Shown one piece after another: positions 15,789 through 64,000 of a stretch of DNA of 64,000 nt; the stretch's first letter is position 1; every line of letters begins with the position of its first letter. The notes beneath the pieces were generated by a model. It made no database searches and was not told the origin of the DNA. It was given only the letters and a program-made list of their open reading frames with translations. Location of the stretch: NCBI GenBank assembly GCA_022791255.1, contig JAAVYR010000016.1, positions 64,497 through 128,496 on the forward strand. The letters are read 5' to 3'. Origin of the DNA: Peptococcaceae bacterium (GTDB lineage Bacteria > Bacillota > Dehalobacteriia > UBA4068 > JAAVYR01). Position numbers and translations under genes: made by a program.

Positions 15789-15821
15789 ATATTATGTTCC
15801 TCCTATAAAACCAAGGCTCTT

Positions 15822-17765
<1,944 letters not shown>

Positions 17766-20223: not shown

Positions 20224-21405
20224 GTGAAACAACCATATTTTACGCCAGAGAATAAAAAGCACCTGCTTATGAATGGGCTCTTAGTAGCCTTTGGCGTCTG
20301 TCTTTATTTTTATTTTATTCATATTGAAGAAATGCACGACTTCTGGGCAAAGCTGACCACCATTTTAAGTCCATTCATCATTGGAGGCATTTTTGCTTAT
20401 TTGTTGTTTCGTCCTACCATGTGGGCAGAAAAGTTACTTTTTGCACTGCCCGGCATGAAAAAAGCACCATCCAGACTGGTCCGCCTTCTCGCTATCTTAC
20501 TGGCAGTGACCTTTTTTGTGATTTTAATCGTCATCTTAATCGCCAATGTATTACCGGAATTAGTCAACAGCTTAATGACCCTGTTTAACGCTTTTCCAGA
20601 ATTATTAGCTTCCTTTGAAGAAAATATTTGGAAATGGCTAGACTCTTTAAATGAAAGCCAACAGGAATACCTGCAATCTCTAATCCATTCGACTTCTGCT
20701 TATCTGCAACAAATGGCAGCCTATCTTGCTACCCTCATCCCAGAGATTTTCAATTATTCCCGCGCTGCCTCTAAAATGCTCTTAAACATGTTTGTGGCTA
20801 TGATTATTACCGTATATCTGCTGCTGGATAAAGAAGCTTTCTTACCAAAGCTCAAACGAAATATTTTAGCAGTATTTGGCCCCGAACGAGCAACCCGCAT
20901 TAATAAGGTGGGAACACTTACCAATCACATTTTCAGCAACTTCATCGCTGGAAAGATTTTAGACTCCATCATCATTGGCGTGCTGTGCTTTGCTTGCCTT
21001 GCCTTGATGAAGATGCCCTATCATCTGCTTATCAGCGTGATTATTGGCGTTACCAATGTAATCCCATTCTTTGGACCTTTTATTGGCGCCGTACCCAGCA
21101 TTTTCCTCATCCTTATGGTAGATCCATCTAAAGCGCTGCTGCTTGCTATCTTTATCTTGATTTTGCAGCAAGTAGACGGCAATATTATCGGGCCAAAGAT
21201 TTTAGGCGACTCTCTGGGGCTGCCCTCTATCTGGATTGTCTTTGCAATCCTCGTGGGCGGCGGTCTTTTCGGCTTCATCGGGATGTTAGTAGGCGTGCCT
21301 ACCTTTGCAGTCATTTACACTTTGTTTAATGAATTTGCCGAAAAACGCATCGCCGAACAAACAGAAAACCAACCCCCAACCTTAAACACCAGCCAAGAAA
21401 AATAG
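20224..21405 (+). CDS. AI-2E family transporter (PerM/YdiK, UPF0118)
   Basis: Eight predicted transmembrane helices. The VIPFFGPFIGAVPS motif is characteristic of the family. Confidence 0.8.
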   Translation: MKQPYFTPENKKHLLMNGLLVAFGVCLYFYFIHIEEMHDFWAKLTTILSPFIIGGIFAYLLFRPTMWAEKLLFALPGMKKAPSRLVRLLAILLAVTFFVILIVILIANVLPELVNSLMTLFNAFPELLASFEENIWKWLDSLNESQQEYLQSLIHSTSAYLQQMAAYLATLIPEIFNYSRAASKMLLNMFVAMIITVYLLLDKEAFLPKLKRNILAVFGPERATRINKVGTLTNHIFSNFIAGKILDSIIIGVLCFACLALMKMPYHLLISVIIGVTNVIPFFGPFIGAVPSIFLILMVDPSKALLLAIFILILQQVDGNIIGPKILGDSLGLPSIWIVFAILVGGGLFGFIGMLVGVPTFAVIYTLFNEFAEKRIAEQTENQPPTLNTSQEK

Positions 21406-46674: not shown

Positions 46675-48105
46675 TTATTGGCAACGAGCATAAAACTCAT
46701 CATAAGTCCAATTGTTCACATAGCAGGTATAAGCGATTTGCTTCCCTACATAGCGCAAATGCCACCATTCAGCAGGATAACCAGTCACTGCCTCCTTTTC
46801 CTTTGGGTAACGAATGATAAAGCCATATTCATGGGCATGGTCCCGCAACCAAAGAGCCTCTTTACACTGAGAAAGATTTTCATCTAATCGATTAGCACTG
46901 TTTACCACATCCATGGCCAGTCCTGTCTGGTGCTCACTGGTACCAGGTTTGGCACGATAGGGATTAGAACCATTACCATACAAGCCCTTTTGGGTCTGAT
47001 AGCTGCGATAACCAGAACGAACAAATATCTCGATACCATCTGCTTTCGCACCGCTAAACAGCGTTTTCAGTTGTTCATAAGCAAAAGGTTCCATGAGCCC
47101 TTGCTGGGTTTTAGCCGGCAGCGTCTGCTGGGTAATCAGGGTAGGCTGATAGGTCTCCGGAAGGGTATGGGTTTTATTCACCAGTACCCAGAGACTGGTC
47201 GGTGTATCCATTTGTTTTTTCATATAAGCTTTATTTTTTGCGGTTAACGGAAATAAACTATTATCTGCTTTGAGCCGTTCCAGAAAATATTTTTCATAAC
47301 GATAGCTATCATTTTGTAGGATTGGTAAATCAGCCAGGATGGCTTCCTTCTCTGCAATGGTACCTATCTGCACCAGACGGTCGCCCCAGCAAACGCTGGT
47401 CACATAGCCTGTTTCCAGGTTTAACGTTACTTCCTTCAAACACAAGAAATGATAAGAAATATCTGCCAATAACAAACGATTTAAGGGCAAAAGACGATAT
47501 TTCTGCAAATCAGAAAGAGGCATGTCCTTGCCTTGGGCAGCAAGCGCAGAAGAAAGCAGGGTAATATATTCCTGGGTGGTCAAAGGCGCAAGCGGGTCCA
47601 TATCCTGCGTTATCATACCATGGTTCATGGCATAGGCGATAAAAGGTCTCCCCCAGGCCGGCACAGCATCAGACACCTGTCCTGGGTTCACTGCTTGTCC
47701 ACGAGCAGCTTGTTCCTGACCAGTCAACCGCAGCGCTAGGATAATCCCTTCCATGCGGTTAGGCGCGCCAGATAAATAAGCAGCATCATATACGCCATGT
47801 TTCTTAGGCCATTGGATAAAAGAGAAGTGCTCTAAGGCAATGACATTGGCTAAAGACTCTCTGCCAGCAGGCAAGTCATCCAACACCAAAACAGCAGTGT
47901 TCCCCTGGGCAACTGTCACCTCTCCATTTTCATCTACGGCATAAACAGGTTTGTCCCCTTTTGGAAAAAAGCAAATAAGACCTAAGCACAGAAAAGCCGC
48001 TGCCCCTGCACCAATCATTTTATTACGGCCGGCAGGCGTCTGCCAAAGGGTACGCAACTGCTGGCAGCTATATTTTAATTTTTCTTTTACTTCTTCTAAT
48101 TTCAT
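46675..48105 (-). CDS. membrane-anchored D-alanyl-D-alanine carboxypeptidase, peptidase M15B (VanY-like)
   Basis: N-terminal transmembrane segment. C-terminal M15 motifs: SGYRSYQTQ, GTSEHQTGLAMDV (HxxxxxxD zinc site) and EYGFIIRYP...EWWHLRYVG. Confidence 0.7.
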   Translation of the reverse strand: MKLEEVKEKLKYSCQQLRTLWQTPAGRNKMIGAGAAAFLCLGLICFFPKGDKPVYAVDENGEVTVAQGNTAVLVLDDLPAGRESLANVIALEHFSFIQWPKKHGVYDAAYLSGAPNRMEGIILALRLTGQEQAARGQAVNPGQVSDAVPAWGRPFIAYAMNHGMITQDMDPLAPLTTQEYITLLSSALAAQGKDMPLSDLQKYRLLPLNRLLLADISYHFLCLKEVTLNLETGYVTSVCWGDRLVQIGTIAEKEAILADLPILQNDSYRYEKYFLERLKADNSLFPLTAKNKAYMKKQMDTPTSLWVLVNKTHTLPETYQPTLITQQTLPAKTQQGLMEPFAYEQLKTLFSGAKADGIEIFVRSGYRSYQTQKGLYGNGSNPYRAKPGTSEHQTGLAMDVVNSANRLDENLSQCKEALWLRDHAHEYGFIIRYPKEKEAVTGYPAEWWHLRYVGKQIAYTCYVNNWTYDEFYARCQ

Positions 48106-50410: not shown

Positions 50411-50917
50411 TTGCGCCATGCCATCGTTGCCCTGGTCGAGAATAAACCAGGGGTCTTAAGCAAGCTATGCGGCCTTATTGCCCGAAAAGGCTTTAACATC
50501 ATCAATCTTTCTGTAGCAGACACAGAAAGGCCCTCTGTCACCCGCATATCTATGGCAGTAGAAACTACAGAACCTACTGCTCCTGCAGAATTAGCTCAAG
50601 TAGTCCATCAACTGGAAAAGCAGCCCTATGTGCTCCAGGTGTTTAATCTCACCCAGGCGGACCCTATCGCCCGAGAAACCGCTCTCTTCAAAATCGCTGC
50701 CGCACCAGTCGTCCGTGGAGAAGTCTTCCATACCTGCGAAAACTTCCGCGCCCGCGTGCTAGAGGCCGGCCCCGACTCTATGGTAGTAGAAATCACCGGC
50801 GACCATCAAAAGATAGATGCCTTCATTTCCGCTATCGAAAAATACCACATTATCGAGAGCATCCGTACTGGTGAAGTCTTCATGACCAAAGACAATCATC
50901 CCCTACTCTCCAAATAA
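50411..50917 (+). CDS. ilvN: acetolactate synthase small (regulatory) subunit, ACT domain
   Basis: TTG start. The HAIVALVENKPGVLSKLCGLIARKGFNIINLSVADTE segment is a typical ACT domain. 168 aa. Confidence 0.85.
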   Translation: MRHAIVALVENKPGVLSKLCGLIARKGFNIINLSVADTERPSVTRISMAVETTEPTAPAELAQVVHQLEKQPYVLQVFNLTQADPIARETALFKIAAAPVVRGEVFHTCENFRARVLEAGPDSMVVEITGDHQKIDAFISAIEKYHIIESIRTGEVFMTKDNHPLLSK

Positions 50918-50927
50918 TGCCGGACTA

Positions 50928-51185
50928 TGCTCCAAATTACAAAGGCACTACTCTCTACTACCGAGCAATTACATATCCTTCTGTCAGAAGTAGCAAGTAT
51001 TTACCAGGCATATCGTGGCATTATCCGTACATCGTGGCATAATCTTGTCATCCTGAGCAAAGTGAAACGGAGCAAAGGATCTTAGATACTGCCACACACT
51101 ACAAAAGCATTGCTCTCTACTACCAGCAATCACACATCTCGCTGCCGGAAGTACTTAGTATTTCTCATGTACTTTGTGGCAATAT
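50928..51185. repeat. dispersed intergenic repeat, two tandem copies (4 and 5), the first with a hairpin module
   Basis: CTCTACTACCGAGCAATTAC...CTGTCAGAAGTAGCAAGTAT...CGTGGCA...GTCATCCTGAGCAAAG...CAAAGGATCT, then CTCTACTACCAGCAATCAC...GCCGGAAGTACTTAGTAT...TGTGGCA. Confidence 0.6.
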
Positions 51186-51188
51186 ATA

Positions 51189-51222
51189 AAAGGACCTCCG
51201 TTAAATAACGGAGGTCCTTTTT
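51189..51222 (-). terminator. rho-independent terminator of the 1057-aa SLH protein gene
   Basis: AAAAGGACCTCCGTTA-aat-AACGGAGGTCCTTTTTT. Confidence 0.55.
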
Positions 51223-51251
51223 TCTGGTGAATAATCAACCGTTGAGATTAA

Positions 51252-54200
51252 TTATTTCCAGGTTTCTTTGTTCCCATCTTTGGTGTAATCATGTTCGTTT
51301 GCAGCTTCGATTACATCAAAGTATGCCCAGTGGTTAGTAGCCACATCTGGGAAGGTTTTGTATTGAGCGCCAGCGATGCTAGCAGCGTCAATTTCCCGTT
51401 CAAGCATGTTGTTTACGATGCTTACTACTTCAGCTCTGCTGATGTTTTGGTTTGGACGGAAGGTACCATCTGGGTAACCGCCGATCCAGCCTTTAGCATA
51501 TGCAGAGTTGATGCTGTTGATAGCCCAGTGGCTAGCAGCTACATCAGTAAATGCATTCTTGTCGGTGTTTTCCAGTTTGTCGAAGCGGGAAGCCATAGCA
51601 GCAAATTCAGCTCTGGTAATTGCAGCATCTGGACGGAAAGTACCGTCTTCATAACCATTGATGATGTTGTAATCTTCCATGTAGCCGATGTAGTTTGCAT
51701 ACCAAGCGCCTGCTTTTACATCACTGAAGCTGGAGTTGTAGCTAGCTTCTACATCCATTTTTTCATTCATCAAGCGAGCGAAGATAGTGATAGCTTCTGC
51801 TCTGGTGATGGATTTATTTGGAGCGAAGGTGCCGTCTTCATAACCACGAACATAAGCGATATGGTCGTCTTTGTTCAGGTCAGCAGTTTTGTTGCTTTCA
51901 AAGATAGCAGTAAAGGTAGTATCTTCTTTAATTCTTACATCAGAAGGATCTACGATTGTCTTGCCATCTAAGGACCAACCTTTGAATTCGTAACCATCTT
52001 TAGCAGTTACTTTAGGCGCTTTGGTAGGATATGCGTTAGCTTTTACGCTTTCGCTGTCGCTGCCAGAGATAGTGCCGCCTTTGCCTACTTTGTAGGTTAC
52101 ATCATAGTATTTGCCGCCGCTGGAGCTAGAACCGCCACCGATAGAACCGGTAGAGGATTTCTTAGGTGTGCCGGTAGCTGTACCAGCGTCACTTGTACCA
52201 GCGTTGTTAGTTGCAGTTACTTCTACAGTGTATTGGTCGCCATTGGTCAGGCCAGTAACTACCTTTTCTAAAGGTTGATCTGCAGTTACATCTGCAGCAG
52301 TGCCTACAACATCACCGTTTTTATCTTTTACGGTTACGGTGTATTTGGTGATTTCAGCACCGTTTTCAGCAGGTTTCGTCCAAGTGATAGTCAATTTTTC
52401 GTTGCCTGCTTTTACAGTTACGACTGGAGCGTCTGGTTTTTGAGCTGGGATATTGGTTACATTAGAACCAATAGTACCGCTATAAGTGCCATCTTCTTTT
52501 GCAGTAGCTTTTACAGTGATATTTTTGCCGATATCATCTTTTGTGATAGTATATTCGATACCGGTTTCACCAGCAATAGCATCGTCACCACGATACCATT
52601 GTAATGTTACATCATTCATAGTAACACCAGCAGGTCCCATGGTTCCTTCAGCAGCTGTTAATTTTTCACCAACAGTGGTGTTACCAGTTACTGCTAATTG
52701 ACCAGTCAATACTGCTTTACCTGGAGTAATTGCTGCGCTGGTCTTGCTACCAGTGTAGTTACCATCTGCTTTAGCAGTGATTTTTACGGTGATAGCTTTA
52801 TTCATATCATCAGCAGTTACAGTGTAAGTAGTACCAGTTGCACCAGCAATATTAGCACCTGCGCGTAACCATTGGATATCTACATCAGCTGCAGCTGCAT
52901 TTACACCAGTAAAGTTTGCAGTGAGAGTTTCCCCAATAGATGCAGCGCCGTCACCATTAGCATCAGTCAAGTCAATGGTAGGAGCATTGTTGATAGCCAA
53001 TTTGCCAATAGTCCAGTCAATGGTCAAGCCTTCTTTTGCAGCATAGTTAGCACCAGCATCTACTTTGAAGGTTACTACATAAGTACCAGCATTAGTAGCA
53101 GTGGTAGCAACAGCACCAGCTGCACCATTCTTAGGCTGTACATTGGTTACAGTGATAGTACCCATACCGTTAACACCATCTTTTGCAGCAACAACAGGTG
53201 TTTGAGCAGCTTTGTTATAAATAACATCTGTTACTTTGAAATTGCCGTTTTGAGGTTCGGTTAATGGTTTTGGAGCGCCAACAGTAATATTAGCTGCAGC
53301 ACTAGCCTTGTAGTTGTCGTTTTCTTTTACCCGTACCCAATATTTAGTACCAGCATTAGTACCATTTACAGTGATTTTACCATCAGCACCAGCAGCAACT
53401 ACAGTAGCATCAGTAAAGGTTGTACCATTAGTGCTGATTTCATAGGTTCTGGTATTATCATAGTTTTTAATGGTAATAACACCATCGTTACCTGCGATAG
53501 TAGCATCTTGTTTTTCCAAGTTAGGAGTATCAGTATCAGCTTTTGCTACCGTTACAGATAAGTTCTGATCGATGGTTTGACCAGATTTTGCAGATGTAAA
53601 GGTTACTTTACCAGTGTAAGTCTTAGCGTCTACCTTAGTAGCTTTCAAGGTAACCTTTACAGTAGCGGTTTTAGCGCCAGTGTTAGGTACAGTTACAGTC
53701 ATTTTTTCTAAGTCAAAGTTACCTGCACCTGTAGCATCTAAGCTAACTGCAACATCATCCAATTCATCTGTACCAATGTTGGTCAGAGTGAATGTTGTTT
53801 CAGCAGTTAATGCAGAACCTGTGTATTTCAGGTTGGTTGGGAAAGCAGCAGTATTTGCTACTTTAAATGCAAACTGAACTGGAACTTTACCATCTACCAA
53901 AGTAACAGTTGCGGTTTTAGCATCATCTGGCCCTTCACTAGTAGCATATATCCATGCAAGCAACTGATCGGTAGGTCCAAATCCTGTTACGGGAACAATC
54001 TTACTTGTTGCACCATTCATAAGATTTTCATCGTTATTAACATTAATTAAAACGCTACTAGATGGTGCACCATTCCCTACATTTGCTGTAATATCAGCAA
54101 CACCACCATAGGGATAAGTCTCACCATTTTCGTTATCGTACCAATCCATAAAGGCTTTGGTAATAACAGTTGTGTAAATACCTTCACCGCCGTCAGCACC

Positions 54201-54425
54201 AATTTTAATGCCAACACCAGTCATTTTTGCGGTATCGGTTTCTTCGGCCCCAGATGCATTAATGTTTACAAACTGCACACTATGGCTTGCTGCAAAAGCA
54301 GATATTGGTGTAATTGTAAACAGCATGGATGCACAGAGAACAGAAGCTACTACTTTTTTCAAAGATAGTTTACCCACTTCTTTAATCTCTCCTTTCAATA
54401 TTAAAATAAAGACATACGTTTGCAA
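51252..54425 (-). CDS. S-layer-homology (SLH) domain surface protein, 1057 aa, multi-domain
   Basis: N-terminal signal peptide (…LFTITPISAFA/ASH). Thr/Ala/Gly/Val-rich beta-sandwich repeats, an FN3 domain (PDAPVVTVKAGNEKLTITWTKP...YTVEVTATN) and a Listeria-Bacteroides-type repeat (YDVTYKVGKGGTISG...GYEFKGW). Three C-terminal SLH domains (FSDV..WYANYI, FTDVAASHWA, FPDVATNHWA). Confidence 0.8.
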   Translation of the reverse strand: MQTYVFILILKGEIKEVGKLSLKKVVASVLCASMLFTITPISAFAASHSVQFVNINASGAEETDTAKMTGVGIKIGADGGEGIYTTVITKAFMDWYDNENGETYPYGGVADITANVGNGAPSSSVLINVNNDENLMNGATSKIVPVTGFGPTDQLLAWIYATSEGPDDAKTATVTLVDGKVPVQFAFKVANTAAFPTNLKYTGSALTAETTFTLTNIGTDELDDVAVSLDATGAGNFDLEKMTVTVPNTGAKTATVKVTLKATKVDAKTYTGKVTFTSAKSGQTIDQNLSVTVAKADTDTPNLEKQDATIAGNDGVITIKNYDNTRTYEISTNGTTFTDATVVAAGADGKITVNGTNAGTKYWVRVKENDNYKASAAANITVGAPKPLTEPQNGNFKVTDVIYNKAAQTPVVAAKDGVNGMGTITVTNVQPKNGAAGAVATTATNAGTYVVTFKVDAGANYAAKEGLTIDWTIGKLAINNAPTIDLTDANGDGAASIGETLTANFTGVNAAAADVDIQWLRAGANIAGATGTTYTVTADDMNKAITVKITAKADGNYTGSKTSAAITPGKAVLTGQLAVTGNTTVGEKLTAAEGTMGPAGVTMNDVTLQWYRGDDAIAGETGIEYTITKDDIGKNITVKATAKEDGTYSGTIGSNVTNIPAQKPDAPVVTVKAGNEKLTITWTKPAENGAEITKYTVTVKDKNGDVVGTAADVTADQPLEKVVTGLTNGDQYTVEVTATNNAGTSDAGTATGTPKKSSTGSIGGGSSSSGGKYYDVTYKVGKGGTISGSDSESVKANAYPTKAPKVTAKDGYEFKGWSLDGKTIVDPSDVRIKEDTTFTAIFESNKTADLNKDDHIAYVRGYEDGTFAPNKSITRAEAITIFARLMNEKMDVEASYNSSFSDVKAGAWYANYIGYMEDYNIINGYEDGTFRPDAAITRAEFAAMASRFDKLENTDKNAFTDVAASHWAINSINSAYAKGWIGGYPDGTFRPNQNISRAEVVSIVNNMLEREIDAASIAGAQYKTFPDVATNHWAYFDVIEAANEHDYTKDGNKETWK

Positions 54426-54446
54426 CCGAATTTTTTAAAATCACCA

Positions 54447-56552
54447 CTATTCACCAGGTGCAAAAATAGAACCTGCCGTGGTACCCAATGCGTCTGTAAT
54501 TTCCCGTTTGGTTAAGTCTCGTTCTCCACCATCGCTATTTTTTGCTGACCAAGCATTGAGGATAGCATTTCTAATAGCAGCAGCGTTACCAGCACCGGTA
54601 ACACTAATGCCCACTGCACGTAATTGGCTATTATTAATTTGATCCATTGTATTATCTCGACAACAATCATTAATCCAACCTAAATAACATTCATATAAAT
54701 AGGTCTTATCTGCACGAGATAGAACAGCACGATTAGAACCATCAAATTGAACAGTCTGTGTTGTTCCCTTATCATAAGTAGATGTGGATACCCCTACACG
54801 AGAACCGCAAGAAACCCAGTTACTCATGCCATAAGTATCAACAACTTCCCAAATAACACGGTCAATCCCTGCGGTTGTTGTCGCATATGGTAAGAGCTCA
54901 ATCACTTCTTTATCCGCACCGGATAAATCATATAAACTATATAGAGTGTTAGAACCGGAAATCATTCTCACACGGAGCGCCGGTTTGGCCGGGCGAGGGA
55001 TAATCTTACCCTCTGCATTTTTCCGAGTTACTTCTACTTTGATATAGTTTACACCGGCCGTAGTATAGCGACCGTAATCTACTGGAGTTACCGTGTATTG
55101 TCTTCCTGGTTCACCCATAGCTTCCCACTCAGCAATGTAGGCTTCATCTGCCACAAAAGCAGCCTTGAGCACCATATCCCCTTGGACGTCCGTAAAATCA
55201 GCTTTATCAGCCGGCTCACCTAGCTGACGGGACGCATCCGGTTCGGTCTCACTATCCACTGCCATATTATTGGCATTACTAGATGAAACTCTTGCACCAT
55301 AAGTGGTAGGTGTTTCACTTTCATACGGGATCCAACAACCAAAGATATATCCTGGATGTGCGTATTCCAGTTGTTTATCTTCTTGGAATTTACTTACGTA
55401 TTGGGTAGCGTCCCCTTTTGGGACGATTACAGATCCCAGCATAGAATTATCCCAATCATAAAATACAATAGCAGCAAAGTCACTCGGGTCAGGAGGCCCG
55501 CCACTACCAGAGTTTACAGAGATACCATTTTTCACTGACAGGAAGTGCCAGTTTAGGATATCCACAGGCTCGGTATCCGTGGTGTAAAAATATGTACCAC
55601 TGCGCCCTGCAGGAGAATTAACCGCAGTGGCATCCTCTGCCACTTTGATACCATATTTCGCCATGAAATCCTCTGCCGTCTCTGCTGGAGGGTCATCAGG
55701 ATTTTCTGGGGTATCTGGGTTATCAGGGTCCGTTGGATCAGTTGGCCCCGGTTCTGTAGGCTCTCCGCCACCTTCTCCCGTACCACCGCCACCTTCACTA
55801 CCATCTCCTGTTTCATCAGCCTGAGTGCTAGGCTCATCTGTTTCATCAGGGTTTGGTGTGGGGTTTTCAGGGTCTGGTTCTTCCGGGTCAGGGGTCGGCT
55901 CTACAGGCGGTTCTTCCGGTGGTTCCGGCGTCTCCGTTGGTAACGCAAAACGCACTGTTACCACTTGGTCCACAGCAGATGTAGCGTCTATCAAGCCATG
56001 ATTAGACTGGAAACCATTACCGGCTGCCAGTTCTTGTAAGCCTTCTAGTCCCATCTCGCTGGGTTGCACCTGATTTAGCCCATATAATGGTGCCGGTGCT
56101 TGCACAGGCACATTGGTAGGGGTAGGTGCTTCCACGCTTAAGTAAAGATATCCCTTATTGGTCGTGCTGTCAATGACAGTAAATGCAGTCTTCCCGCTGA
56201 TAATGTCTTTCCCCTTCGTAGGCAAAGGCACAGCGTGGTCCCACATCGTTTCACCTTCAGCTAGCGCCGTTGGGTCTACTTTAGCCTTATTTAACAGTTC
56301 GTCCGTTACTTCATCTGCCCATCCGCAAGGCTTGAGCGCAGAGGCATCATATTCTAATACCACACCGGTAGATTGGAAGCTATCATTCTTGCTATCTATT
56401 CTTAAGCCCAGTTCTAATGCAGCGCCATTATCCACTCTGGCCGCAACGACCGTTACTTCCGGTGGCACTTGGTTCGCACCCACAACACCCAGGCTAAAGA
56501 AAGCTACCAATAATGCTGCCATGCACATCAATAACATGATTTTCTTTCTCAT
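54447..56552 (-). CDS. secreted surface protein, 701 aa, with an N-terminal cohesin-like module and a Pro/Glu/Thr/Asp-rich linker
   Basis: Signal peptide MRKKIMLLMCMAALLVAFFSLGVVGA. About 170-aa N-terminal domain containing a TGVVLEYDASALKP block. About 90-residue PE/PT/DP-rich linker. C-terminal domain of unknown function. Confidence 0.5.
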   Translation of the reverse strand: MRKKIMLLMCMAALLVAFFSLGVVGANQVPPEVTVVAARVDNGAALELGLRIDSKNDSFQSTGVVLEYDASALKPCGWADEVTDELLNKAKVDPTALAEGETMWDHAVPLPTKGKDIISGKTAFTVIDSTTNKGYLYLSVEAPTPTNVPVQAPAPLYGLNQVQPSEMGLEGLQELAAGNGFQSNHGLIDATSAVDQVVTVRFALPTETPEPPEEPPVEPTPDPEEPDPENPTPNPDETDEPSTQADETGDGSEGGGGTGEGGGEPTEPGPTDPTDPDNPDTPENPDDPPAETAEDFMAKYGIKVAEDATAVNSPAGRSGTYFYTTDTEPVDILNWHFLSVKNGISVNSGSGGPPDPSDFAAIVFYDWDNSMLGSVIVPKGDATQYVSKFQEDKQLEYAHPGYIFGCWIPYESETPTTYGARVSSSNANNMAVDSETEPDASRQLGEPADKADFTDVQGDMVLKAAFVADEAYIAEWEAMGEPGRQYTVTPVDYGRYTTAGVNYIKVEVTRKNAEGKIIPRPAKPALRVRMISGSNTLYSLYDLSGADKEVIELLPYATTTAGIDRVIWEVVDTYGMSNWVSCGSRVGVSTSTYDKGTTQTVQFDGSNRAVLSRADKTYLYECYLGWINDCCRDNTMDQINNSQLRAVGISVTGAGNAAAIRNAILNAWSAKNSDGGERDLTKREITDALGTTAGSIFAPGE

Positions 56553-56597
56553 GTTCCGTTTTCCCTCCTTCGATCCATTATCCTTGCATGGGGCAAA

Positions 56598-58286
56598 TCA
56601 ATTATTCTGCCGCACCACCTCCTTCACCTGATTATAATAATCTTTATGCATTAAGATATTTAAATCTTGCATATCTATTTTACCATCGCCGTCAATATCT
56701 GCACAGTATTTTTCATAGTTATATTTTGCCAATTTTTGTTCGGCGACCGCATTGCCTTCTTCTGCAGGCGGTTCTTTCCGACTATGGTTGATAAAGCCTA
56801 AGAGAACGGTTCTATCGGAAAGCTTGGTCTTATCATCGCCACCGACTTCTGTTTCTTTTTCATTGGTGATATCACCAGGAATTAAGAAGGTATCCGGCAC
56901 GCTGCATTCACCGCTTGCCAGAGAGAGACCTTCATACACAGCAGTGATATGGCCCGGCTTTAAGATTTCTACCTTATAGATCCCAGCTTCCCCCACAGTA
57001 AAGGTTCCTTTTTGTTTATATCTCCAAGTACCCTTACTATTACCGTGAAAAGTCTTTTGGCCAGTGACATCTAGCTCTGTCCAGCTTGTCCCACTGCTAG
57101 CATCATCCCCTGTAGTGGTATCACCAGCGTCATCAGCCAGTCCGCTTTCACCGCCGCCACTTTCACTATCTCCGCCATCTTCACCACCACCAGGTGTTTC
57201 CCCGCCGCCTTCTTCCGTGTCGCCGCCTTGGGGACCTTGCCATACCGGCAACTCTATAAAACCAGTGACATCAGCAGGATAGGTTCCATCTTCGCCTTGA
57301 AGATACCACTTGATGGTAACTGGCTTTTTGGGGTCATAAGAAGTAATCACACCAGCTTCCAGCTCAGAAGCTAAATCACAATCAATATCTGTCTGTACTT
57401 GCAGCTCGATACGATAAGTGCCATCTGCTTCTTTTTCTACTGGACAAATAAATTCATGATAAGGCATACCATTGATGCAGACTTCGCCATCGATTTCCTC
57501 TACCACCAATTTACCTTCAAACTCAGCAGGCAATCGTTTAGCTACCAACTCCGGTAAATCATCAATAGTTACCGGCAAGTCGGCTATATTTACTTCTACA
57601 TTATGACGGAAATACCCTTGGTAGTAACCAACACGGTCAGGCCGAACCTGCATTTCCTCTGCTGTTGCTGTTCGCCAGATACTTTCTGCTACCATCAAAT
57701 CATGGTCAGGAACGGTATTCCCATAGTGAGAATGTTCCTTAATCATGTCCTCAAAATGGAGCAACTGAATATCTGCCAGCGATAAATCAGCAACAGCACT
57801 GCCATCAGTATCCTGCAAAAGGATTTCCAGCAAATGAACACGATGCTCTTCTCCGTTTACAGGAGGTAAAACATTACTACGAGTCCAGCCAAGGGCATAA
57901 TACTCAGCACCAGAGTCCCGGGTACCGCTTAAAACATTTCCTCCCAAACCAATAGCCGCCAGTTCATAATAAGGCTCACTACCACTGGCAATGTGCGGTG
58001 TAATGTTAGCATTACTTCCTGCTGGCAATTGAAAGCCAAAAGAGCCAGAATATAACGGTGCGTCTGCCGGTTCTATTAAATATACATTTAATGTTCTTGC
58101 ACCACCAGTCCCCAGCATTGCAACATTACCCAATGTAACCTCATACCGATAAGGCACAACTGGAACATCAGGAACGACAGGGTCTTCCTCTCCTTCAGAG
58201 GCAGCCCTTACCACCAATGGCGCAGCCAACACAAAAACCATGAAGCAAAGCAATAATAAATATCGCCTTTTTCCAACCCGCTGCAT
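56598..58286 (-). CDS. secreted protein, 562 aa, with a C-terminal dockerin-like Ca-binding repeat
   Basis: Signal peptide (…VVRA/ASEG), Gly/Asp/Glu-rich linker and C-terminal DIDGDGKIDMQDLNILMHKDYY (DxDxDGxxDxxD, an EF-hand/dockerin-type loop). Confidence 0.5.
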   Translation of the reverse strand: MQRVGKRRYLLLLCFMVFVLAAPLVVRAASEGEEDPVVPDVPVVPYRYEVTLGNVAMLGTGGARTLNVYLIEPADAPLYSGSFGFQLPAGSNANITPHIASGSEPYYELAAIGLGGNVLSGTRDSGAEYYALGWTRSNVLPPVNGEEHRVHLLEILLQDTDGSAVADLSLADIQLLHFEDMIKEHSHYGNTVPDHDLMVAESIWRTATAEEMQVRPDRVGYYQGYFRHNVEVNIADLPVTIDDLPELVAKRLPAEFEGKLVVEEIDGEVCINGMPYHEFICPVEKEADGTYRIELQVQTDIDCDLASELEAGVITSYDPKKPVTIKWYLQGEDGTYPADVTGFIELPVWQGPQGGDTEEGGGETPGGGEDGGDSESGGGESGLADDAGDTTTGDDASSGTSWTELDVTGQKTFHGNSKGTWRYKQKGTFTVGEAGIYKVEILKPGHITAVYEGLSLASGECSVPDTFLIPGDITNEKETEVGGDDKTKLSDRTVLLGFINHSRKEPPAEEGNAVAEQKLAKYNYEKYCADIDGDGKIDMQDLNILMHKDYYNQVKEVVRQNN

Positions 58287-58344
58287 AATATTACCTTCTT
58301 TTTACTTTCCAGATTTCAATATAATTCTAACCCGATATCATCAC

Positions 58345-60087
58345 CTAGTTTAACTTATTGTAAATACGATATAAGAATACGGCTGTTTCCGCCCGGGTAG
58401 TGTTTGCTAAAGGATTAAGTTTATGACTTTCATCCCCGGCGATAAAGCCTTCTTCTACCATACGCCCTACACTCTCAATAGCATAATCCGAAATTTGGTT
58501 TTTGTCTACAAATTCCGCAAAAATTGTTTCATCAACAGAAGCCCCTTCTATCTTTTGCAGATAAACAAGAGCGCGGCTGGTTAATACCATCATATCTTGC
58601 CGGCTGATACTAGCTTCCGGTTCAAAGCGGTTATCGCCGCTGCCCTGGGCAATCCCCAGCTGTTTCGCAATGGCAATTTCCTTATAATAATATTTATCCG
58701 GTGTTACATCGGCAAAGTTCCCTTCTGGTTCTCCATTAGGACTTAACATTCTCACTAATAAAACCATAAAGTCCGCCCGGGTAATTCGGTCATTTGGAGA
58801 GAAGGTAGTTGGCGTTGTTCCTTTGATAATGCCCTTTTCCGCTAAAGCCAAAATTGCTTCTCTAGCCCAAGGTACAGAAGTCAAATCACTAAAACTGCTA
58901 CCATTGGTTGCTGTACCATTATTGGCATTGTTTTCGTTATCTTCTTTATCCTGTTTGATGTCACTAATAGCCCCACGGCTTAACACTGTCAATACAAAAT
59001 CTCTGGTAGCAGAAGCCTGATTTTTCTTTACAGTAGCTGTTAGCGTTACTTGCGTTTTAGTAGCCCGAGGAAATACATTCCCGGTGTTACTAATCACTTC
59101 CGAGTCACTGCTAGCCCAAGTGATTTCGGTACTATCTTGGCCAGTAGTAGGCAAGCCTACAATGCTGGTAACAGCATTGGCGCTATCTCCCGGTATGTAA
59201 GAAATGGTCAAATGCTCTGTCACATAGTCCACCAATTGTTGGTCCGTTAACAGCACCACTTCTTCAGTTTTATCTACTTTATCCACGGTTACTTTATCAT
59301 ATTTAGTACCATAACCGTTCAGAGACACCCGATAGGAATAAGTACCATCGGTTAAATATGTTTCTGCTTTGCCATTGCTATCTGCTTCCACTGTCCGATT
59401 GTTTACTAATACGCTAGCAGCCAAAGCCTGTCCCACACCATCTTTGATATCAAAGGTAATGAGGCGCAAGTTTGCTGGTCTTGCATCGTCATTCGGATAG
59501 TCGAAGGTCACATCGCAAAACAGTTCATTATCAAGGTTATAAAAATAATAGGTTAAATCTAATGCACCGATAAACGCGCCGCTCCGCCAATTTACATTGC
59601 CGGCTGCACTCATGTCTAAAAGTCTTAAAGTATCCCAGTCGAGGTCATCGGCAGTTACCCCGTCTGCTAATTGAAATTCTAATTGAACCAACGCTTTTGG
59701 TTCGGTACGGCTATCTAAAGTATTCTCTTGAGAATACCAAGCAAACATAACATAGCCGTCTTCATTGGAAATCAAATCACTTACATCATAGTTATCTTGA
59801 GTAACTACTACCCCAGCCTGTCTTTGAATGGCTCTATTAAAGTCGTTAGCTCGAGATAATTGCATTTTAGTTTCATCAAAATCTAAAGCAAAGCGGCCGA
59901 TGGAACCTTCTACCCCTTCTATAGAAATGGTAGCAATAAAACGGTTGCCAGAGGCGATATTTCCTTCTACTATGTAGCCTACTTGGTCTGCAGCCATTGC
60001 TTGTACGCCACAGCATAAGAAGCACAAGACAGCTACCAGCAGAGTAGCAAACCACTTTTGTTTACCCATCAACCTCTCTCCTTTCAA
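58345..60087 (-). CDS. SLH-anchored surface protein, 580 aa, with an N-terminal cohesin-like module (putative anchoring scaffoldin)
   Basis: Signal peptide (…CCGVQAMA/ADQ). N-terminal beta-rich domain with a GRFALDFDETKMQLS block, an Ig-like middle domain (ITWASSDSEVISNTGNV) and three C-terminal SLH domains (FSDLTSVPWAREAI, FADVTPDKYYYKEI, FAEFVDKNQISDYAI). Confidence 0.65.
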   Translation of the reverse strand: MKGERLMGKQKWFATLLVAVLCFLCCGVQAMAADQVGYIVEGNIASGNRFIATISIEGVEGSIGRFALDFDETKMQLSRANDFNRAIQRQAGVVVTQDNYDVSDLISNEDGYVMFAWYSQENTLDSRTEPKALVQLEFQLADGVTADDLDWDTLRLLDMSAAGNVNWRSGAFIGALDLTYYFYNLDNELFCDVTFDYPNDDARPANLRLITFDIKDGVGQALAASVLVNNRTVEADSNGKAETYLTDGTYSYRVSLNGYGTKYDKVTVDKVDKTEEVVLLTDQQLVDYVTEHLTISYIPGDSANAVTSIVGLPTTGQDSTEITWASSDSEVISNTGNVFPRATKTQVTLTATVKKNQASATRDFVLTVLSRGAISDIKQDKEDNENNANNGTATNGSSFSDLTSVPWAREAILALAEKGIIKGTTPTTFSPNDRITRADFMVLLVRMLSPNGEPEGNFADVTPDKYYYKEIAIAKQLGIAQGSGDNRFEPEASISRQDMMVLTSRALVYLQKIEGASVDETIFAEFVDKNQISDYAIESVGRMVEEGFIAGDESHKLNPLANTTRAETAVFLYRIYNKLN

Positions 60088-60254
60088 TTTCGTAAGTCAT
60101 CAAAATTCGTAACTTGTAAGTTTAAAAACATATAACATATCACTTCCTGGGCAGCCTGAGCAATATCTCAAGCCGCCCGGAAGTCATATGATGAAACTAT
60201 AGTCTAACCAATTTAATCATAGTATACCATAGTTTTTTTTAGATAACCACTGGC

Positions 60255-63200
60255 TTATTTTGCCATGAATTCTGCATAGGTTTCTTGGTTATAAGCCTTA
60301 CCGAAGCTATTCTTTGCGTAAAGGATATCGTTAACATCGGTAACACCACCGTTATCGTTGATATCGCCCCACAATTGAGCTTGACAGCCTGGTGTGTTGG
60401 TCAAGATACCATTGGCAATCTGAGACAAGTCTCTCATGTCAACAACGATACCGTTGCGGTTTGCTTCCCCAGCAGTCAATTGAACTTCTTTCACATCACC
60501 AGTATCTGGTTTACCAAATACGATAGTATCCTCTACATTAGCGTCAGTAGCGATTTCAAAATCAGTGATGACATATTTCAAGAAACCGTTTTTGGTAACA
60601 GTTACAGTCCAGTTACCACTAGGAACATGAGCAGTTACATTGGATTTCTGGCTGATAGGCTTATCACCAGTAAATTCAAATGTTGTATCATCATCCCGAG
60701 TAAAGGTAACTTTTGCTGCGGTCTGAGGATCTTCGCTGATTAAGTATTTTACAATCATGGTTACTGTGAAGGTTTGTTCATCGAAGTTTGCAACGATAAT
60801 TGTATCTGCTTTTACTGGATCCATGGTGTAAGTAGTAACTTTAGTAGTTGCATCTGCAGCAGGTACAGTTACTTTTGTACCGTCAACAGTTACTTCACCT
60901 AATTGATATTTTTCAGCAGGTTTCATATCGAAGCTTGGGGTATCCCCGATGTTTACAACCGTAATACCATGAGCAACGATAGTACCTTGGCCTTTCCCTA
61001 CTTTAGAGGTAACAATCTTTTGGATTGGATCGCCATCTAAAGGTTTGAAAGTAGCAGTAATGGTATGATTATTGTTTGCTTCTAGACCAGTCAAACTTAC
61101 AGAAGCTTTTACAACGCCGTTATTTTTAGCATCTGGATCAGTAGTATGATCTGTCGCAATAACTGTTACAGAACCACCAGTTAATGTTGCGGTGGTACCA
61201 GGTGTATCAGCTAATGCAATGTCTTGACCGTCTACAATAATTCTATCGATTTCATAACCATCTTTTGCTTCTACAGTAGCGGCAAAGTCTTCATAGTTAT
61301 CACCAGAGGCAGCGATAATATAATCTTTGCGGTCGCCTTTGCCGATAACATCGGTATCATGTTTGATTTCCCCAAATTCACCGCCTACTACAGTAACAAC
61401 AGGCGCATGTTTCGGATCTACTTCTTCACCTTTTTCATCAAATTCACCGAAGATAACAGTAATTACTTGGTCAGAAGCTACATTGGTAAAGGTGTGTTTG
61501 TATACAAAGCCATCTTTACCTTTGTCATCACCTAAGTTTACATCAACACCGTTAACGATAACTTGGGATACTGCATAGTAATGTCCGGTAGCTAAGCCAG
61601 TTGCAGCATCAGGAGTGAATACGAATTCACTGGAAGTGCTAGAGCCTTTATCTAATGTTTCTACAACATTTTTGTTGTCACCAGATACTTCAACTTTATC
61701 TGTAACAGCTACAGGAGCAGTAATAGTACCATTACCTTGTGCATTCGCAGTAACAGTGTATTGTGCTGGAACAAATTTTGTGTTGTCAATCTTAATGGAC
61801 AAATCACCAGCTTGCAACCGTTCATCTAATGGAGTAGCTGGATTATCAGTGCCATCCGGATCTAATGGGTCACCGATAATATCGTCAGCTGGGATTTTAT
61901 ATTGGTTTGTAGTTTTATCTAAGGTAGCAGTAGTGGTCTTAATAACAGTTGGATTACCGTCATCGCCTTCTGGCCCATAGATAGTTACTTCCAATGTTTC
62001 AGGTTTGGTGCCATCCCAGTCATAACCAGGTTTTGGTTGGATGTTGAAGCTGTATTCTACACCGTTGAAAGCGACAGTATCACCGGAAAGTTGACCTTTT
62101 TCATCACCGTCAGGTGTAGCTGTAGCGCTATCGCCACTGCCTTCTACAAAATCTAATACAACAGGGTGATAGATTTTTGCTTTCAAAGGAGCTTCATTGC
62201 GTACAGTTTCTTTTGCAACAGAGAATTCTTTTAATTCTTTTGCTTTTGCTTCATCAATGTTGCCAGGATATGGCCAGAAGCCTAATTTTTCTACAATGAA
62301 TTTGTAGGTAGTGTCAGCAGTAGCTGTGAAGTATACTTCCCCACGGTCATCGGTAGTCAATGTCATGATTGGGGTAGCGTCAGCGTCAGCTGCAGCTGCG
62401 TCGTAAACCCTTACAGTAGCGTTTTCAATTGGGTCACCAGTTTCTACATTGGTTACGATAAATTCAGCTCTGATATTGTTTTCCGGACGAGGGAAAGTAA
62501 TCTGAGTCCGTACGTCATAACCAATTGCTTCTGGGTTATAATTTTCATCCATTGGGTCTTTGTAAGGGAATGCTTGGTAGAAACCTTCACTGCCTACACG
62601 ACCAGTAGCCATGGATTTGTCCAAACGACCTTCAGGTAATTCACCGCTGGTAAATTTGCTTGGATCATTTTGGTCATCAGCTACACGCCAGAAGTTGCCT
62701 AAGAATTCATCAATAGCGTCTTGTTTACCAGCAAAGTTAGTGTTTGCCCAAGCAAGATATGCAGTTTCATCTACAGGTGTTACGAATAAAGACTCGTTAT
62801 TGATGAGAGTTTCTACATCTACACCTTCTTTTACATCTAAGGTGTAGGTAGCGATTAATACTTTATTTGTAAGAGCATCTACATAACCAGGGTCAAGAAG
62901 GCCACTGGACTCATCTTTCCCTTTCCAGGAGAACATGTGGATACCATGTGCAGCGTCAGTAGTTGGGTTGTCTAATTTAGCTGTTGTGAATTCGCTTTCA
63001 GTTAAACGAACAGTAGATGCAGTGTTTAATACAAAGCCATTGGTTGCAGCTAAATCAAAGATTTTTGTATCATAACGCAAACCAAAAGTACCGTGAGTAG
63101 CTTTCATGTTTTGTAATTCTACAGTAACGGTCATTTGCGTTTGGGCTTCATTCCAAGTACCAGTTACTACATACAAAGGTCCGTTTACAGCAGTCAAGCC

Positions 63201-64000
63201 GCTACCAGATGGCATATTGTTAGCAGTCCCTTTGTTATCACCATCAAAAGTGATTTCGTTACCGCCGGTTACAGTGCCGTCAGTCAAAGTACCACCGATG
63301 ATAGCTTTATCTTCTTCTACCTTCAGTTCGATGTTTTCACCGGCTTCATAGCCAGGAGCAGTAATATTGATGATATAATCACCAGCTGGCAAGTTCAAAT
63401 CAACATTACCATCTTTATCATCATCAGTGAAAGGAAGTGGTAATTTACCTTCGATAGCTTCTGTTACACTACCATTTGGGTTTTTGCTTACGGTAATGGT
63501 AGCGCCTTCGATAGGATTACCTTCGCTATCTTTTACCGGAATGGTAATCAACTTTTGTTGTTTTGCCATGGTTACGGTAACGATAGGATTAGCGGAGTCG
63601 GTCTTCTGGGTTAATTCCATCCCAGAACCAGTAAGCTCAATGGTACCATTGCCGCCGACAGTTACTTTTACACTACCAGCCATTGGCACATAGCCGTCTT
63701 TGCTAATAGCGATGTCATAAGTTGCGGTATTTTCTTTTTTCTCAGCTGTAACTTTCCCTTGTGCATTAGTAGTATATTCAGTGGTATCAACAAGAACTTT
63801 TACACCTTCTAGTGGTGCGTTGCTATTGTCACCGTCTAATACTACAAAGTCAAAGGGATATGTTCCCATTTGTCTTTCATTACATACTAAGGATTTGGTT
63901 TCGCCTTCTGTCGTAACAGTAAATTTGCCGCTGGTAACTTCATGAGTCGCAGCTACATCAGTACCAGTTGGGTCAATTGTGTAGTTATATTCCCCAGCTT
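60255..64000 (-). CDS. giant secreted surface protein (over 1240 aa, N-terminus beyond the window end) with a C-terminal two-repeat dockerin-like module
   Basis: The reading frame stays open upstream of the first in-window Met at 63869 through to the window edge. Thr/Val/Asp-rich beta-sandwich repeats and a cohesin-like block (TFGLRYDTKIFDL). C-terminal NRNGIVVDMRDLSQIANGIL plus GDINDNGGVTDVNDILYAKNSF, a duplicated Ca-binding DxNxNGxVxxxD loop typical of dockerins. Confidence 0.6.
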   Translation of the reverse strand, partial: AGEYNYTIDPTGTDVAATHEVTSGKFTVTTEGETKSLVCNERQMGTYPFDFVVLDGDNSNAPLEGVKVLVDTTEYTTNAQGKVTAEKKENTATYDIAISKDGYVPMAGSVKVTVGGNGTIELTGSGMELTQKTDSANPIVTVTMAKQQKLITIPVKDSEGNPIEGATITVSKNPNGSVTEAIEGKLPLPFTDDDKDGNVDLNLPAGDYIINITAPGYEAGENIELKVEEDKAIIGGTLTDGTVTGGNEITFDGDNKGTANNMPSGSGLTAVNGPLYVVTGTWNEAQTQMTVTVELQNMKATHGTFGLRYDTKIFDLAATNGFVLNTASTVRLTESEFTTAKLDNPTTDAAHGIHMFSWKGKDESSGLLDPGYVDALTNKVLIATYTLDVKEGVDVETLINNESLFVTPVDETAYLAWANTNFAGKQDAIDEFLGNFWRVADDQNDPSKFTSGELPEGRLDKSMATGRVGSEGFYQAFPYKDPMDENYNPEAIGYDVRTQITFPRPENNIRAEFIVTNVETGDPIENATVRVYDAAAADADATPIMTLTTDDRGEVYFTATADTTYKFIVEKLGFWPYPGNIDEAKAKELKEFSVAKETVRNEAPLKAKIYHPVVLDFVEGSGDSATATPDGDEKGQLSGDTVAFNGVEYSFNIQPKPGYDWDGTKPETLEVTIYGPEGDDGNPTVIKTTTATLDKTTNQYKIPADDIIGDPLDPDGTDNPATPLDERLQAGDLSIKIDNTKFVPAQYTVTANAQGNGTITAPVAVTDKVEVSGDNKNVVETLDKGSSTSSEFVFTPDAATGLATGHYYAVSQVIVNGVDVNLGDDKGKDGFVYKHTFTNVASDQVITVIFGEFDEKGEEVDPKHAPVVTVVGGEFGEIKHDTDVIGKGDRKDYIIAASGDNYEDFAATVEAKDGYEIDRIIVDGQDIALADTPGTTATLTGGSVTVIATDHTTDPDAKNNGVVKASVSLTGLEANNNHTITATFKPLDGDPIQKIVTSKVGKGQGTIVAHGITVVNIGDTPSFDMKPAEKYQLGEVTVDGTKVTVPAADATTKVTTYTMDPVKADTIIVANFDEQTFTVTMIVKYLISEDPQTAAKVTFTRDDDTTFEFTGDKPISQKSNVTAHVPSGNWTVTVTKNGFLKYVITDFEIATDANVEDTIVFGKPDTGDVKEVQLTAGEANRNGIVVDMRDLSQIANGILTNTPGCQAQLWGDINDNGGVTDVNDILYAKNSFGKAYNQETYAEFMAK

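Follow-up and report, generated by a model that had tools for sequence, protein, structure and literature searches.

Organization of the locus

Five co-oriented open reading frames (ORFs) occupy the minus strand at one end of a 64,000-nt stretch from a Peptococcaceae bacterium (contig JAAVYR010000016.1, positions 64,497 to 128,496; hereafter the window), at 51252-54425, 54447-56552, 56598-58286, 58345-60087 and 60255 onward. The block makes up the greater part of a conserved locus with six genes, whose products are predicted here to carry cohesins, dockerins and S-layer homology (SLH) anchors and probably to assemble on the cell surface. A first-pass annotation had described the block as five giant secreted proteins. 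Its coordinates were reproduced exactly by ORF listing, and the motifs and DxDxDG/DxNxNG loops that it quoted are present in the window proteins, but the label 'giant' applies to just two of the five. The proteins are named P1 to P5 in order from 51252 to 64000 and P6 is the next gene beyond the window, so that the gene order reads P6-P5-P4-P3-P2-P1. The genes lie on one strand with short intergenic gaps, and a promoter and terminator scan of 50800-64000 gave no signal above chance.

The last ORF was correctly described as open at the window edge, with the P5 frame unbroken to the last full codon at 63998. Extension past 64000 was achieved with a JGI metagenome contig (L001). It matches the window at 100% identity over 57142-64000 (6859-bp overlap), adds ~6 kb and supplies both the P5 N-terminus and the further gene P6. 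The signal peptides ascribed to all five proteins were also borne out: a basic n-region, a hydrophobic core and an AxA-type site were seen by eye in P1 to P4, and the N-terminus of P5, which lies in L001 outside the window, reads MKLNKKFNKIVSWVLCLAMVFNLMPVFPALGA. The most likely start of P4 is the ATG at 60069 (574 residues; 580 residues from the TTG at 60087) because the exact 574-residue product is found in public assemblies. The six genes are as follows.

51252..54425, minus strand: P1, secreted 1057-residue SLH-anchored protein (ORF; Ig-like repeats, FN3, Flg_new, SLH)
54447..56552, minus strand: P2, secreted 701-residue protein without anchor and without dockerin (ORF; orthologs P0106-P0115)
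56598..58286, minus strand: P3, secreted 562-residue putative small adaptor (ORF; exact product on two Logan contigs)
58345..60069, minus strand: P4, predicted SLH-anchoring monovalent scaffoldin (ORF)
60255..64000, on to virtual 64976, minus strand: P5, C-terminal 1247 residues of a putative 1573-residue adaptor scaffoldin (open frame and L001)
virtual 64997 to beyond 70069 (L001:1-5073), minus strand: P6, FN3-array protein (L001)

A predicted SLH-anchoring scaffoldin

P4 is on record at NCBI as 'MAG: S-layer homology domain-containing protein [Peptococcaceae bacterium]' (MAG, metagenome-assembled genome). Its modules are, in order, a putative cohesin, a CarboxypepD_reg-like domain, aBig_2 and three SLH repeats, of which aBig_2 and the SLH repeats are recognized by Pfam.

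59485..59991, minus strand: P4 putative N-terminal cohesin, residues 27-195 (AlphaFold2 model, family profile, transitive Pfam link)
58978..59223, minus strand: P4 aBig_2, atrophied bacterial Ig domain (Pfam PF20578, E 3.3e-22)
58366..58914, minus strand: P4 triple SLH anchor (Pfam SLH, E 5.1e-32, three stretches)

The C-terminal SLH triplet reported in the first-pass annotation is thus confirmed by Pfam, and the same region matches the SLH domain of Bacillus anthracis Sap in the PDB (E 6e-13). The N-terminal module was less accessible to direct comparison. A phmmer search of P4 and P5 against PDB sequences returned SLH and aBig_2 relatives only, with no cohesin and no dockerin, and a word-indexed homolog search with the P4 module alone gave zero matches, itself included, a longer query being needed. 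Exhaustive HMMER searching of 1.84 billion representatives recovered a small family of 80 proteins or clusters at E<=1e-3, in which the P4-type module nearly always sits immediately after the signal peptide. Two profiles were built, A1 from five P4-module sequences and A2 from 38 members of the family, with P5 not in A2. Profile A1 found no match in the PDB and the 38-sequence profile was required; the six best matches of A2 were all cohesins, with E values of 0.0025-0.01, of which the best, marginal at 0.0025, extended over 112 positions. The Pfam Cohesin family (PF00963) matched 13 of the 38 A2 members at E<=0.1 (best 2.3e-6), the window P4 sequence not being among them, and at E<=0.001 just 2 of the 69 full-length proteins bearing a P4-type cohesin. 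The Pfam Cohesin check proposed in the first-pass annotation therefore failed when made directly on the window proteins but succeeded for part of the P4-module family. Across the 69 full-length proteins, SLH was present in 52, aBig_2 in 42 and a catalytic domain in none.

The AlphaFold2 model of the P4 N-terminal module (predicted template modelling score, pTM, 0.68) reached a predicted local distance difference test score (pLDDT) of ~80 over residues 1-125, and the modelled fold is a nine-stranded beta-sandwich jelly-roll like that of solved cohesins. The best fold matches of the module were cohesins in 17 of 17 cases. As an internal negative control, the FN3, Ig-like and CarboxypepD_reg modules of the locus proteins do not match the cohesin profile A2. 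Homology to solved cohesins was detected at the profile level, marginally for the P4 family and most strongly for the N-terminal module of P5 described below. By fold and family profile, P4 is predicted to join a divergent cohesin to a triple SLH anchor and so to be an SLH-anchoring scaffoldin, a class whose members pair one or more cohesins with an SLH domain (PMC11557425), as P4 does.

A very improbable alternative is that the proteins of the locus do not bind one another, the 'cohesins' being mere structural beta-sandwiches and the 'dockerins' calcium-binding stabilizing tails of six S-layer-associated or secreted proteins that are independent of one another except in their regulation. Such an absence of binding would accord with window sequences that fall below Pfam thresholds and with the common occurrence of beta-sandwich folds, but the matches of the P4 module are specifically to cohesins.

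Putative adaptor proteins P5 and P3

The full-length P5 of 1573 residues was taken from L001:5094-9815. Its features within the window are a putative internal cohesin, a series of beta-sandwich repeats and a putative C-terminal dockerin.

62718..63185, minus strand: P5 putative internal cohesin, full-length residues 598-753, motif TFGLRYDTKIFDL (hhalign and hmmsearch against A2)
63297..63836, minus strand: P5 CarboxypepD_reg-like beta-sandwich repeats (Pfam PF13620)
60258..60488, minus strand: P5 putative C-terminal divergent dockerin, repeats GEANRNGIVVDMRDLSQIANGIL and GDINDNGGVTDVNDILYAKNSFG (ortholog family profile)

The module carrying TFGLRYDTKIFDL had been noted as cohesin-like from its motif, and its homology to the P4 family was evident from the alignment of its orthologs with A2 (hhalign probability 98.3%, E 1.3e-14, 136 columns). 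It was also found by hmmsearch with the A2 model at an E value of 7.8e-18, though P5 lies outside A2. The second putative cohesin of P5 is N-terminal, right after the signal peptide, and lies beyond the window in L001. All nine PDB matches of its family profile (A8) were cohesins, among them 3l8q at E 1.3e-5 and 4uyp at E 0.0011, and its aligned stretch with A2 was only 36 columns. P5 is therefore predicted to carry two cohesins, one internal and one N-terminal, as in a scaffoldin with two or more cohesins. The PF13620 repeats matched at E 2.2e-21 in three stretches of the window part and at E 1.4e-20 in four stretches of the full-length protein. P5, in which two cohesins and a C-terminal dockerin are combined with many beta-sandwich spacers, is predicted to be an adaptor scaffoldin. 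The N-terminal cohesin is 36% identical between the window strain and a related locus, L005 (L001:5094-5900 compared with L005:600-1500), where other locus modules are 50-74% identical; so fast a divergence would be expected if the module determined specificity or were exposed.

When the locus proteins were compared all against all by BLASTP, the cohesin-like modules had hardly any similarity to one another (P4 with P5, 18% identity, E 0.19). The paralogy of the cohesin modules could be demonstrated with profiles only.

P3 has orthologs in the same position in 11 related loci and combines a putative N-terminal cohesin, a module that the first-pass annotation did not list, with a putative C-terminal dockerin.

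57756..58151, minus strand: P3 putative N-terminal cohesin, residues ~46-177 (ortholog profile A7 against A2)
56622..56885, minus strand: P3 putative C-terminal dockerin, residues 468-555 (ortholog family A4)

The profile of the P3 N-terminal module (A7, 11 orthologs) aligned with A2 over 118 columns with an hhalign probability of 95.6% (E 1.3e-8), and found no direct match in the PDB.

The tails of P3 and P5 were examined as ortholog families. For P5 (family A3), 6 of 12 members match Dockerin_1 (PF00404) at E<=1, the best at 3e-5, and the 11 best PDB matches are all dockerin-containing chains (best 2y3n_B, E 5.4e-5), with the type II dockerin of CipA (2b59_B) aligned over positions 4-69 at E 0.004. 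For P3 (family A4), all 11 members match Dockerin_1 at E<=1 (best E 3.8e-11). Both repeats are covered by the Clostridium thermocellum dockerins 4fl4 (E 3.1e-11, positions 12-68) and 2yik (E 9.4e-11), and solved dockerins rank above calmodulins, which are drawn by the EF-hand-like loop. The possibility that the tails are isolated EF-hand loops was rejected, since both repeats align to solved dockerins in the A3 and A4 profiles. A layout of two tandem segments of ~22 residues, each a predicted calcium loop followed by a predicted helix, is present in the P3, P5 and P6 tails across orthologs.

The calcium loops of the window strain are nonetheless atypical. In P5, alignment A3 places a glutamate at position 1 of loop 1, and loop 2 has a one-residue insertion relative to all orthologs but one. 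In P3, alignment A4 shows the first loop split by an 8-residue insertion (GDITNEKETEVGGDDKTKLSDRT) and the second canonical (DIDGDGKIDMQD). The P3 of a 43%-identical relative (L004) ends in a clean two-repeat dockerin, GDLDGDGKTKLTDRTLLLGFL ... ADINGDGTITMEDLNIMM. The first loop is canonical there (GDLDGDGKTKLTD; L004:11830-13308), interrupted in the window strain and broken by a longer insertion in L005 (L005:7300-8940), and the insertion is read from these alignments as a lineage-specific remodelling of one of the two calcium sites. By family, the P3 and P5 tails are predicted dockerins, whereas the calcium-binding competence of both in the window strain is uncertain. The first-pass annotation was consequently right in part about each tail. 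The dockerin-type tail of P3 holds at the family level, but it has two repeats with an insertion rather than a single one and scores below the Pfam cut-off; the tandem repeats of P5 are both present and of the dockerin family, but the window sequence has no Pfam match. The atypical loops would suit the reading in which the tails bind no partner, though the two-repeat dockerin layout is kept by all three tails across distant orthologs.

The FN3-array protein P6 and the flanking proteins P1 and P2

P6 is at least 3435 residues long in L001 and at least 3411 residues in L004 (L004:1-5458), both values being lower bounds because each contig ends inside the gene. Pfam recognized 12 FN3 stretches in the last 1592 residues. 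The C-terminal Dockerin_1 match scores 36.2 bits, above the cut-off of 22.9, and is canonical; the dockerin is internally duplicated with near-identical repeats, GDVNGDGKINALDKNTVVRNQNK and GDVNNDGKINALDKNTVVRNQNK. FN3 and Ig-like stalk repeats are present in both P6 and P1, and no adhesive (ligand-binding) domain was identified in P1 or in the visible part of P6.

The outermost gene on the other side encodes P1, for which the triple SLH, the FN3 domain and the Listeria-Bacteroides repeat of the first-pass annotation were all supported by Pfam.

51306..51899, minus strand: P1 triple SLH anchor, residues ~843-1040 (Pfam SLH, E 3.4e-40, three stretches, best 899-942)
52188..52421, minus strand: P1 FN3, residues 669-746 (Pfam fn3, E 1.3e-11)
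51906..52106, minus strand: P1 Listeria-Bacteroides repeat, residues 774-840 (Flg_new, PF09479, E 1e-7, 32.4 bits against a cut-off of 27)

A long protein of 904-1555 residues occupies the P1 position in L004, L005, L007, L008, L010 and L014, SLH is present at that position in L004 and L005, and one C-terminus in L008 resembles that of the window P1. Participation of P1 through a cohesin or dockerin was considered and rejected, as no match to the cohesin profile A2 was found in P1 and no such module was detected.

P2 is on record as 'hypothetical protein HFI72_05615' and belongs to no Pfam or NCBIfam family. An N-terminal beta module is followed by a Pro/Thr/Glu-rich linker and a C-terminal region of ~400 residues. 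The latter (window 54447-55682, residues ~291-701) is conserved among orthologs, for example in FYDWD and GYxF..W motifs, and its ortholog profile found no relative in Pfam, NCBIfam or PDB sequences.

55938..56474, minus strand: P2 N-terminal module, residues 27-205, motif TGVVLEYDASALKP (possible divergent cohesin)

The ortholog profile of the N-terminal module found just two PDB matches, both type II cohesins with non-significant E values of 0.03 and 0.98. Comparison with A2 gave an hhalign probability of 12.8% over 45 columns, in register. The AlphaFold2 model was moderate (pLDDT 61, with a disordered loop of ~50 residues), and its top seven Foldseek matches were type II cohesins at weak E values of 0.012-0.09 and a TM score of ~0.35. 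PIG-T and pilins were matched at a Z similar to that of the cohesins, which is a further point for the reading of these modules as structural beta-sandwiches. Of the N-terminal modules proposed as cohesins in the first-pass annotation, those of P4 and P5 are therefore supported, whereas for the TGVVLEYDASALKP module of P2 cohesins are the best matches and none is significant; a divergent cohesin is possible.

Cohesins, dockerins and enzymes at the locus

The locus contains four supported cohesins (P4, two in P5 and P3) and one doubtful cohesin (P2), three dockerins (P6, P5 and P3) and two SLH anchors (P4 and P1). The other 51 kb of the window yielded no further cohesin or dockerin. Neither Pfam nor NCBIfam identified a catalytic or carbohydrate-binding family (glycoside hydrolase or carbohydrate-binding module, CBM) in P1 to P5 or in the last 1592 residues of P6, and the NCBIfam matches to the locus proteins were all sub-threshold and driven by SLH and FN3.

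This inventory bears on whether the locus is the scaffoldin cluster of a cellulosome- or amylosome-type complex, with spare cohesins of P4, P5 and P3 recruiting dockerin-fused carbohydrate-active or other enzymes encoded elsewhere. In known producers of true cellulosomes, too, the scaffoldin genes form clusters that contain no enzyme genes, for example in cipA-olpB-orf2p-olpA and in the Ruminococcus flavefaciens sca cluster. The excess of cohesins over dockerins at the locus (four or five to three) and the two cohesins of P5 would also fit an enzyme complex, and sequence-based annotation is known to overlook cellulosomes whose cohesins are divergent (PMC13463774). It is nevertheless considered unlikely. 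The ~70 kb of genome inspected (the window and its L001 extension) contain no dockerin-fused enzyme and no CBM, each scaffoldin of the locus has just one or two cohesins, all three dockerin carriers are non-catalytic, and no catalytic domain occurs in proteins with the P4-type cohesin family. The relatives, moreover, are MAGs of uncultured gut Clostridia with no fibre-degrading role recorded here. Because no dockerin-fused glycoside hydrolase was found in this stretch, the predicted assembly is not a cellulosome by the published definition, applied as quoted in PMC13487519.

Conservation of the locus

A genome scan with profile A1, one genome per species, found ten loci in MAGs of uncultured Clostridia. 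The six-gene order P6-P5-P4-P3-P2-P1 is kept in L004 and L005, and the same order, complete or cut by contig ends, occurs in the gut Clostridia MAGs L007, L008, L009, L010, L011 and L014. The MAGs with the locus include UMGS491, Lapin-008, MGBC132292, Hominilimicola sp., HRGM_2601, RGIG2264 and an Oscillospiraceae MAG, of labelled or apparent human, mouse, rabbit and goat gut origin. On contigs of sufficient length, the neighbouring genes of the related loci agree and all three types of dockerin tail recur. Genes for cohesin-bearing and dockerin-bearing proteins strictly co-occur, in a conserved order, across distant genomes, as would be expected of interacting partners, and this speaks against six proteins united by regulation only.

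In the goat-gut MAG (Clostridia bacterium RGIG2264), three paralogous P5-P4-P3 triads were observed (L012:2-5319, L013:2-5380 and L015:2-8045), with P4 cohesins 47-58% identical to one another and dockerin tails 40-62% identical. Because three such triads occur in one MAG, adaptor, anchor and small adaptor may together form a duplicable core unit.

The triads, together with the presence of a cohesin and a dockerin on the same polypeptide in both P3 and P5, would also be compatible with head-to-tail self-assembly of P3 and P5 into a non-covalent surface fibre or matrix, nucleated on P4 and capped by P6, in place of a defined branched complex. A weak lead in this direction is that, within P3, the distance matrices of cohesin and dockerin correlate (r 0.75-0.76, partial 0.39-0.54), but the correlations come from few non-independent taxa and this one is no stronger than those of other pairs. 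Self-specificity is unsupported. In known scaffoldins, as is generally recognized, the cohesin and dockerin of one polypeptide are usually non-cognate. Such a polymer is regarded as distinctly improbable.

Genomic surroundings

The rest of the window is ordinary chromosome, with gyrB, gyrA, gltX, cysS, guaA, a PLD-type (cardiolipin-synthase-like) gene, ilvB/ilvN and a VanY-type peptidase. The last of these is a 476-residue protein (46675-48105), adjoining ilvB, with a C-terminal VanY D-Ala-D-Ala carboxypeptidase domain (E 1.4e-33) and ~330 N-terminal residues without annotation. The cluster is followed by ilvN/ilvB (and VanY) in both the window and L005, and the recurrence of the VanY/ilvB neighbourhood in L005 indicates a syntenic flank. 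In L004 the cluster is followed by a GGDEF/EAL gene of c-di-GMP turnover (19204-21000). Most genes of the window are on the minus strand, including gyrB/gyrA (13293-17756) and the entire surface-protein block, and GC skew is below zero in every 2-kb bin of window 1-64000 (cumulative -3.64).

Proposed assembly

The module assignments, with cohesins recognized by fold and profile, dockerins by family profile and SLH directly, make it reasonably likely that the locus encodes a self-contained cohesin-dockerin assembly that is non-covalently wall-anchored and non-enzymatic. Within the examined sequence the set is closed, with three dockerins and four or five cohesins in one locus, and the proteins probably join into one large surface structure that is non-enzymatic. 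The first-pass annotation had proposed a surface assembly of an SLH-anchored cohesin protein and its dockerin partners; the proposal withstands the refuting conditions named there and is supported through fold and family profiles, and only in part by the route suggested.

After Sec export, the SLH repeats of P4 would hold it on the secondary cell-wall polymer. The P4 cohesin would act as a single socket that captures the Ca2+-loaded dockerin of P5, or possibly that of P3 instead, and P6 and P3 would then plug their dockerins into the two cohesins of P5. The product would be a branched stalk, held together non-covalently, from which P6 would extend away from the wall as a very long FN3 fibre. 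A dockerin 'plug' would serve where ordinary fibrillar adhesins have an LPXTG or SLH anchor. By analogy with fibrillar adhesins that have FN3/Ig stalks and with CttA on ScaE in R. flavefaciens, the most likely role for such a structure would be adhesion, or cell-to-substrate or cell-to-cell tethering in the gut.

Several observations weigh against this assembly or limit it. No window protein, nor full-length P5, matched Pfam Cohesin at thresholds from E<=0.1 to 10; the window P3 tail scored 16.8-20.0 bits against Dockerin_1, through its second repeat only and under the Pfam gathering threshold of 22.9 bits; and the window P5 tail did not match Dockerin_1 even at E<=10. Given their atypical loops, the P3 and P5 dockerins might be weakened or non-functional in the window strain. 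The match of A2 to the PDB is marginal, and the P4 model was made from a five-sequence alignment (P4 with four orthologs) and has a mean pLDDT of 67.5. A mirror-tree style correlation of distance matrices over 5-12 loci, with taxa that are non-independent, gave no discriminating pairing signal. The enzyme-free character, and with it the non-cellulosomal nature suggested in the first-pass annotation, applies to the ~70 kb inspected and, because cohesins outnumber dockerins, partners encoded elsewhere, possibly enzymes, are plausible. A search of metagenome contigs for the P6 N-terminus recovered none, and the N-terminal half of P6 lies outside the available sequence. The adhesion role, finally, is inferred from domain content alone.

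Comparison with known systems

The arrangement has recognizable counterparts. P4 resembles SdbA, OlpB and Orf2p of Acetivibrio thermocellus and other SLH-anchoring scaffoldins of Acetivibrio and Pseudobacteroides, but differs in that its putative cohesin is N-terminal, single and invisible to Pfam, and in the added CarboxypepD_reg-like and aBig_2 domains. The docked partners predicted here, unlike those of the Acetivibrio type, have no enzymes, CBM3 or recognizable X-module, and the host is an uncultured gut bacterium and no known cellulose degrader. From general knowledge of R. flavefaciens, P6 or P5 on P4 would be analogous to CttA on ScaE, in which a non-enzymatic protein with a C-terminal dockerin is paired with a wall-bound monovalent cohesin from one gene cluster. 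However, ScaE is attached by sortase and P4 by SLH repeats. Defined modules let CttA bind cellulose, whereas P6 is a protein of 3435 residues or more built as an FN3 array, and the sca cluster serves ~200 dockerin enzymes whereas no such clients are seen at the P1-P6 locus.

Scaffoldins have been divided into anchoring and adaptor classes, including a 'monovalent adaptor' (PMC11557425). The adaptors of the locus differ from ScaB of A. cellulolyticus and ScaC of R. flavefaciens by their very long CarboxypepD_reg-like and Ig-like spacers and by cohesins that are N-terminal, directly after the signal peptide, and they have no known enzyme clients. The hierarchy of anchor, adaptor and client would be that of complex cellulosomes (PMC11557425), here with structural cargo. 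Non-cellulosomal cohesin and dockerin proteins with non-catalytic parents were catalogued by Peer et al. 2009 (FEMS Microbiol Lett 291:1), as cited in PMC13487519. Such cases, for example the glycosidase and toxin complexes of Clostridium perfringens and the proteins of Archaeoglobus fulgidus, are mostly isolated modules or enzyme-enzyme pairs. Compared with them, the locus has a complete putative set of anchor, adaptor and cargo in a conserved, operon-like arrangement. P6 and P1, as long FN3/Ig-like stalk arrays on secreted proteins, resemble the fibrillar adhesins of Gram-positive bacteria, from which P6 differs by ending in a dockerin and not in an LPXTG, SLH or transmembrane anchor, with no adhesive head domain identified.

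Implications

The building principle of the locus is known from cellulosomes and its parts belong to known module families, but the version found here is undescribed: no description of the six-gene locus or of its cohesin family was found in the literature. To our knowledge, cohesin-dockerin assembly is known almost only as a means of organizing plant-fibre-degrading enzymes, and we know of hardly any non-cellulosomal cohesin or dockerin with a worked-out architecture. A compact and complete set of anchor, two adaptors and giant non-catalytic cargo would make other uses of cohesin-dockerin docking directly testable. Standard annotation misses the system, since P4 is publicly listed as an 'S-layer homology domain-containing protein' and P2 as 'hypothetical'; this agrees with the finding that divergent cohesin families hide such assemblies from annotation (PMC13463774).

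Tentatively, uncultured gut Clostridia could possess a new family of surface fibres, non-enzymatic and 'dockable', built by a dedicated six-gene operon with P4 as wall-anchored socket, P5 and P3 as adaptors, P6 as a fibre of more than 3400 residues, cohesins invisible to Pfam and, possibly, head-to-tail polymerization. Docking would then be a general, exchangeable alternative to the sortase or SLH anchoring of giant adhesins. If the function is indeed adhesion, the proteins could rank among the main surface determinants of gut Clostridia about which little is known.

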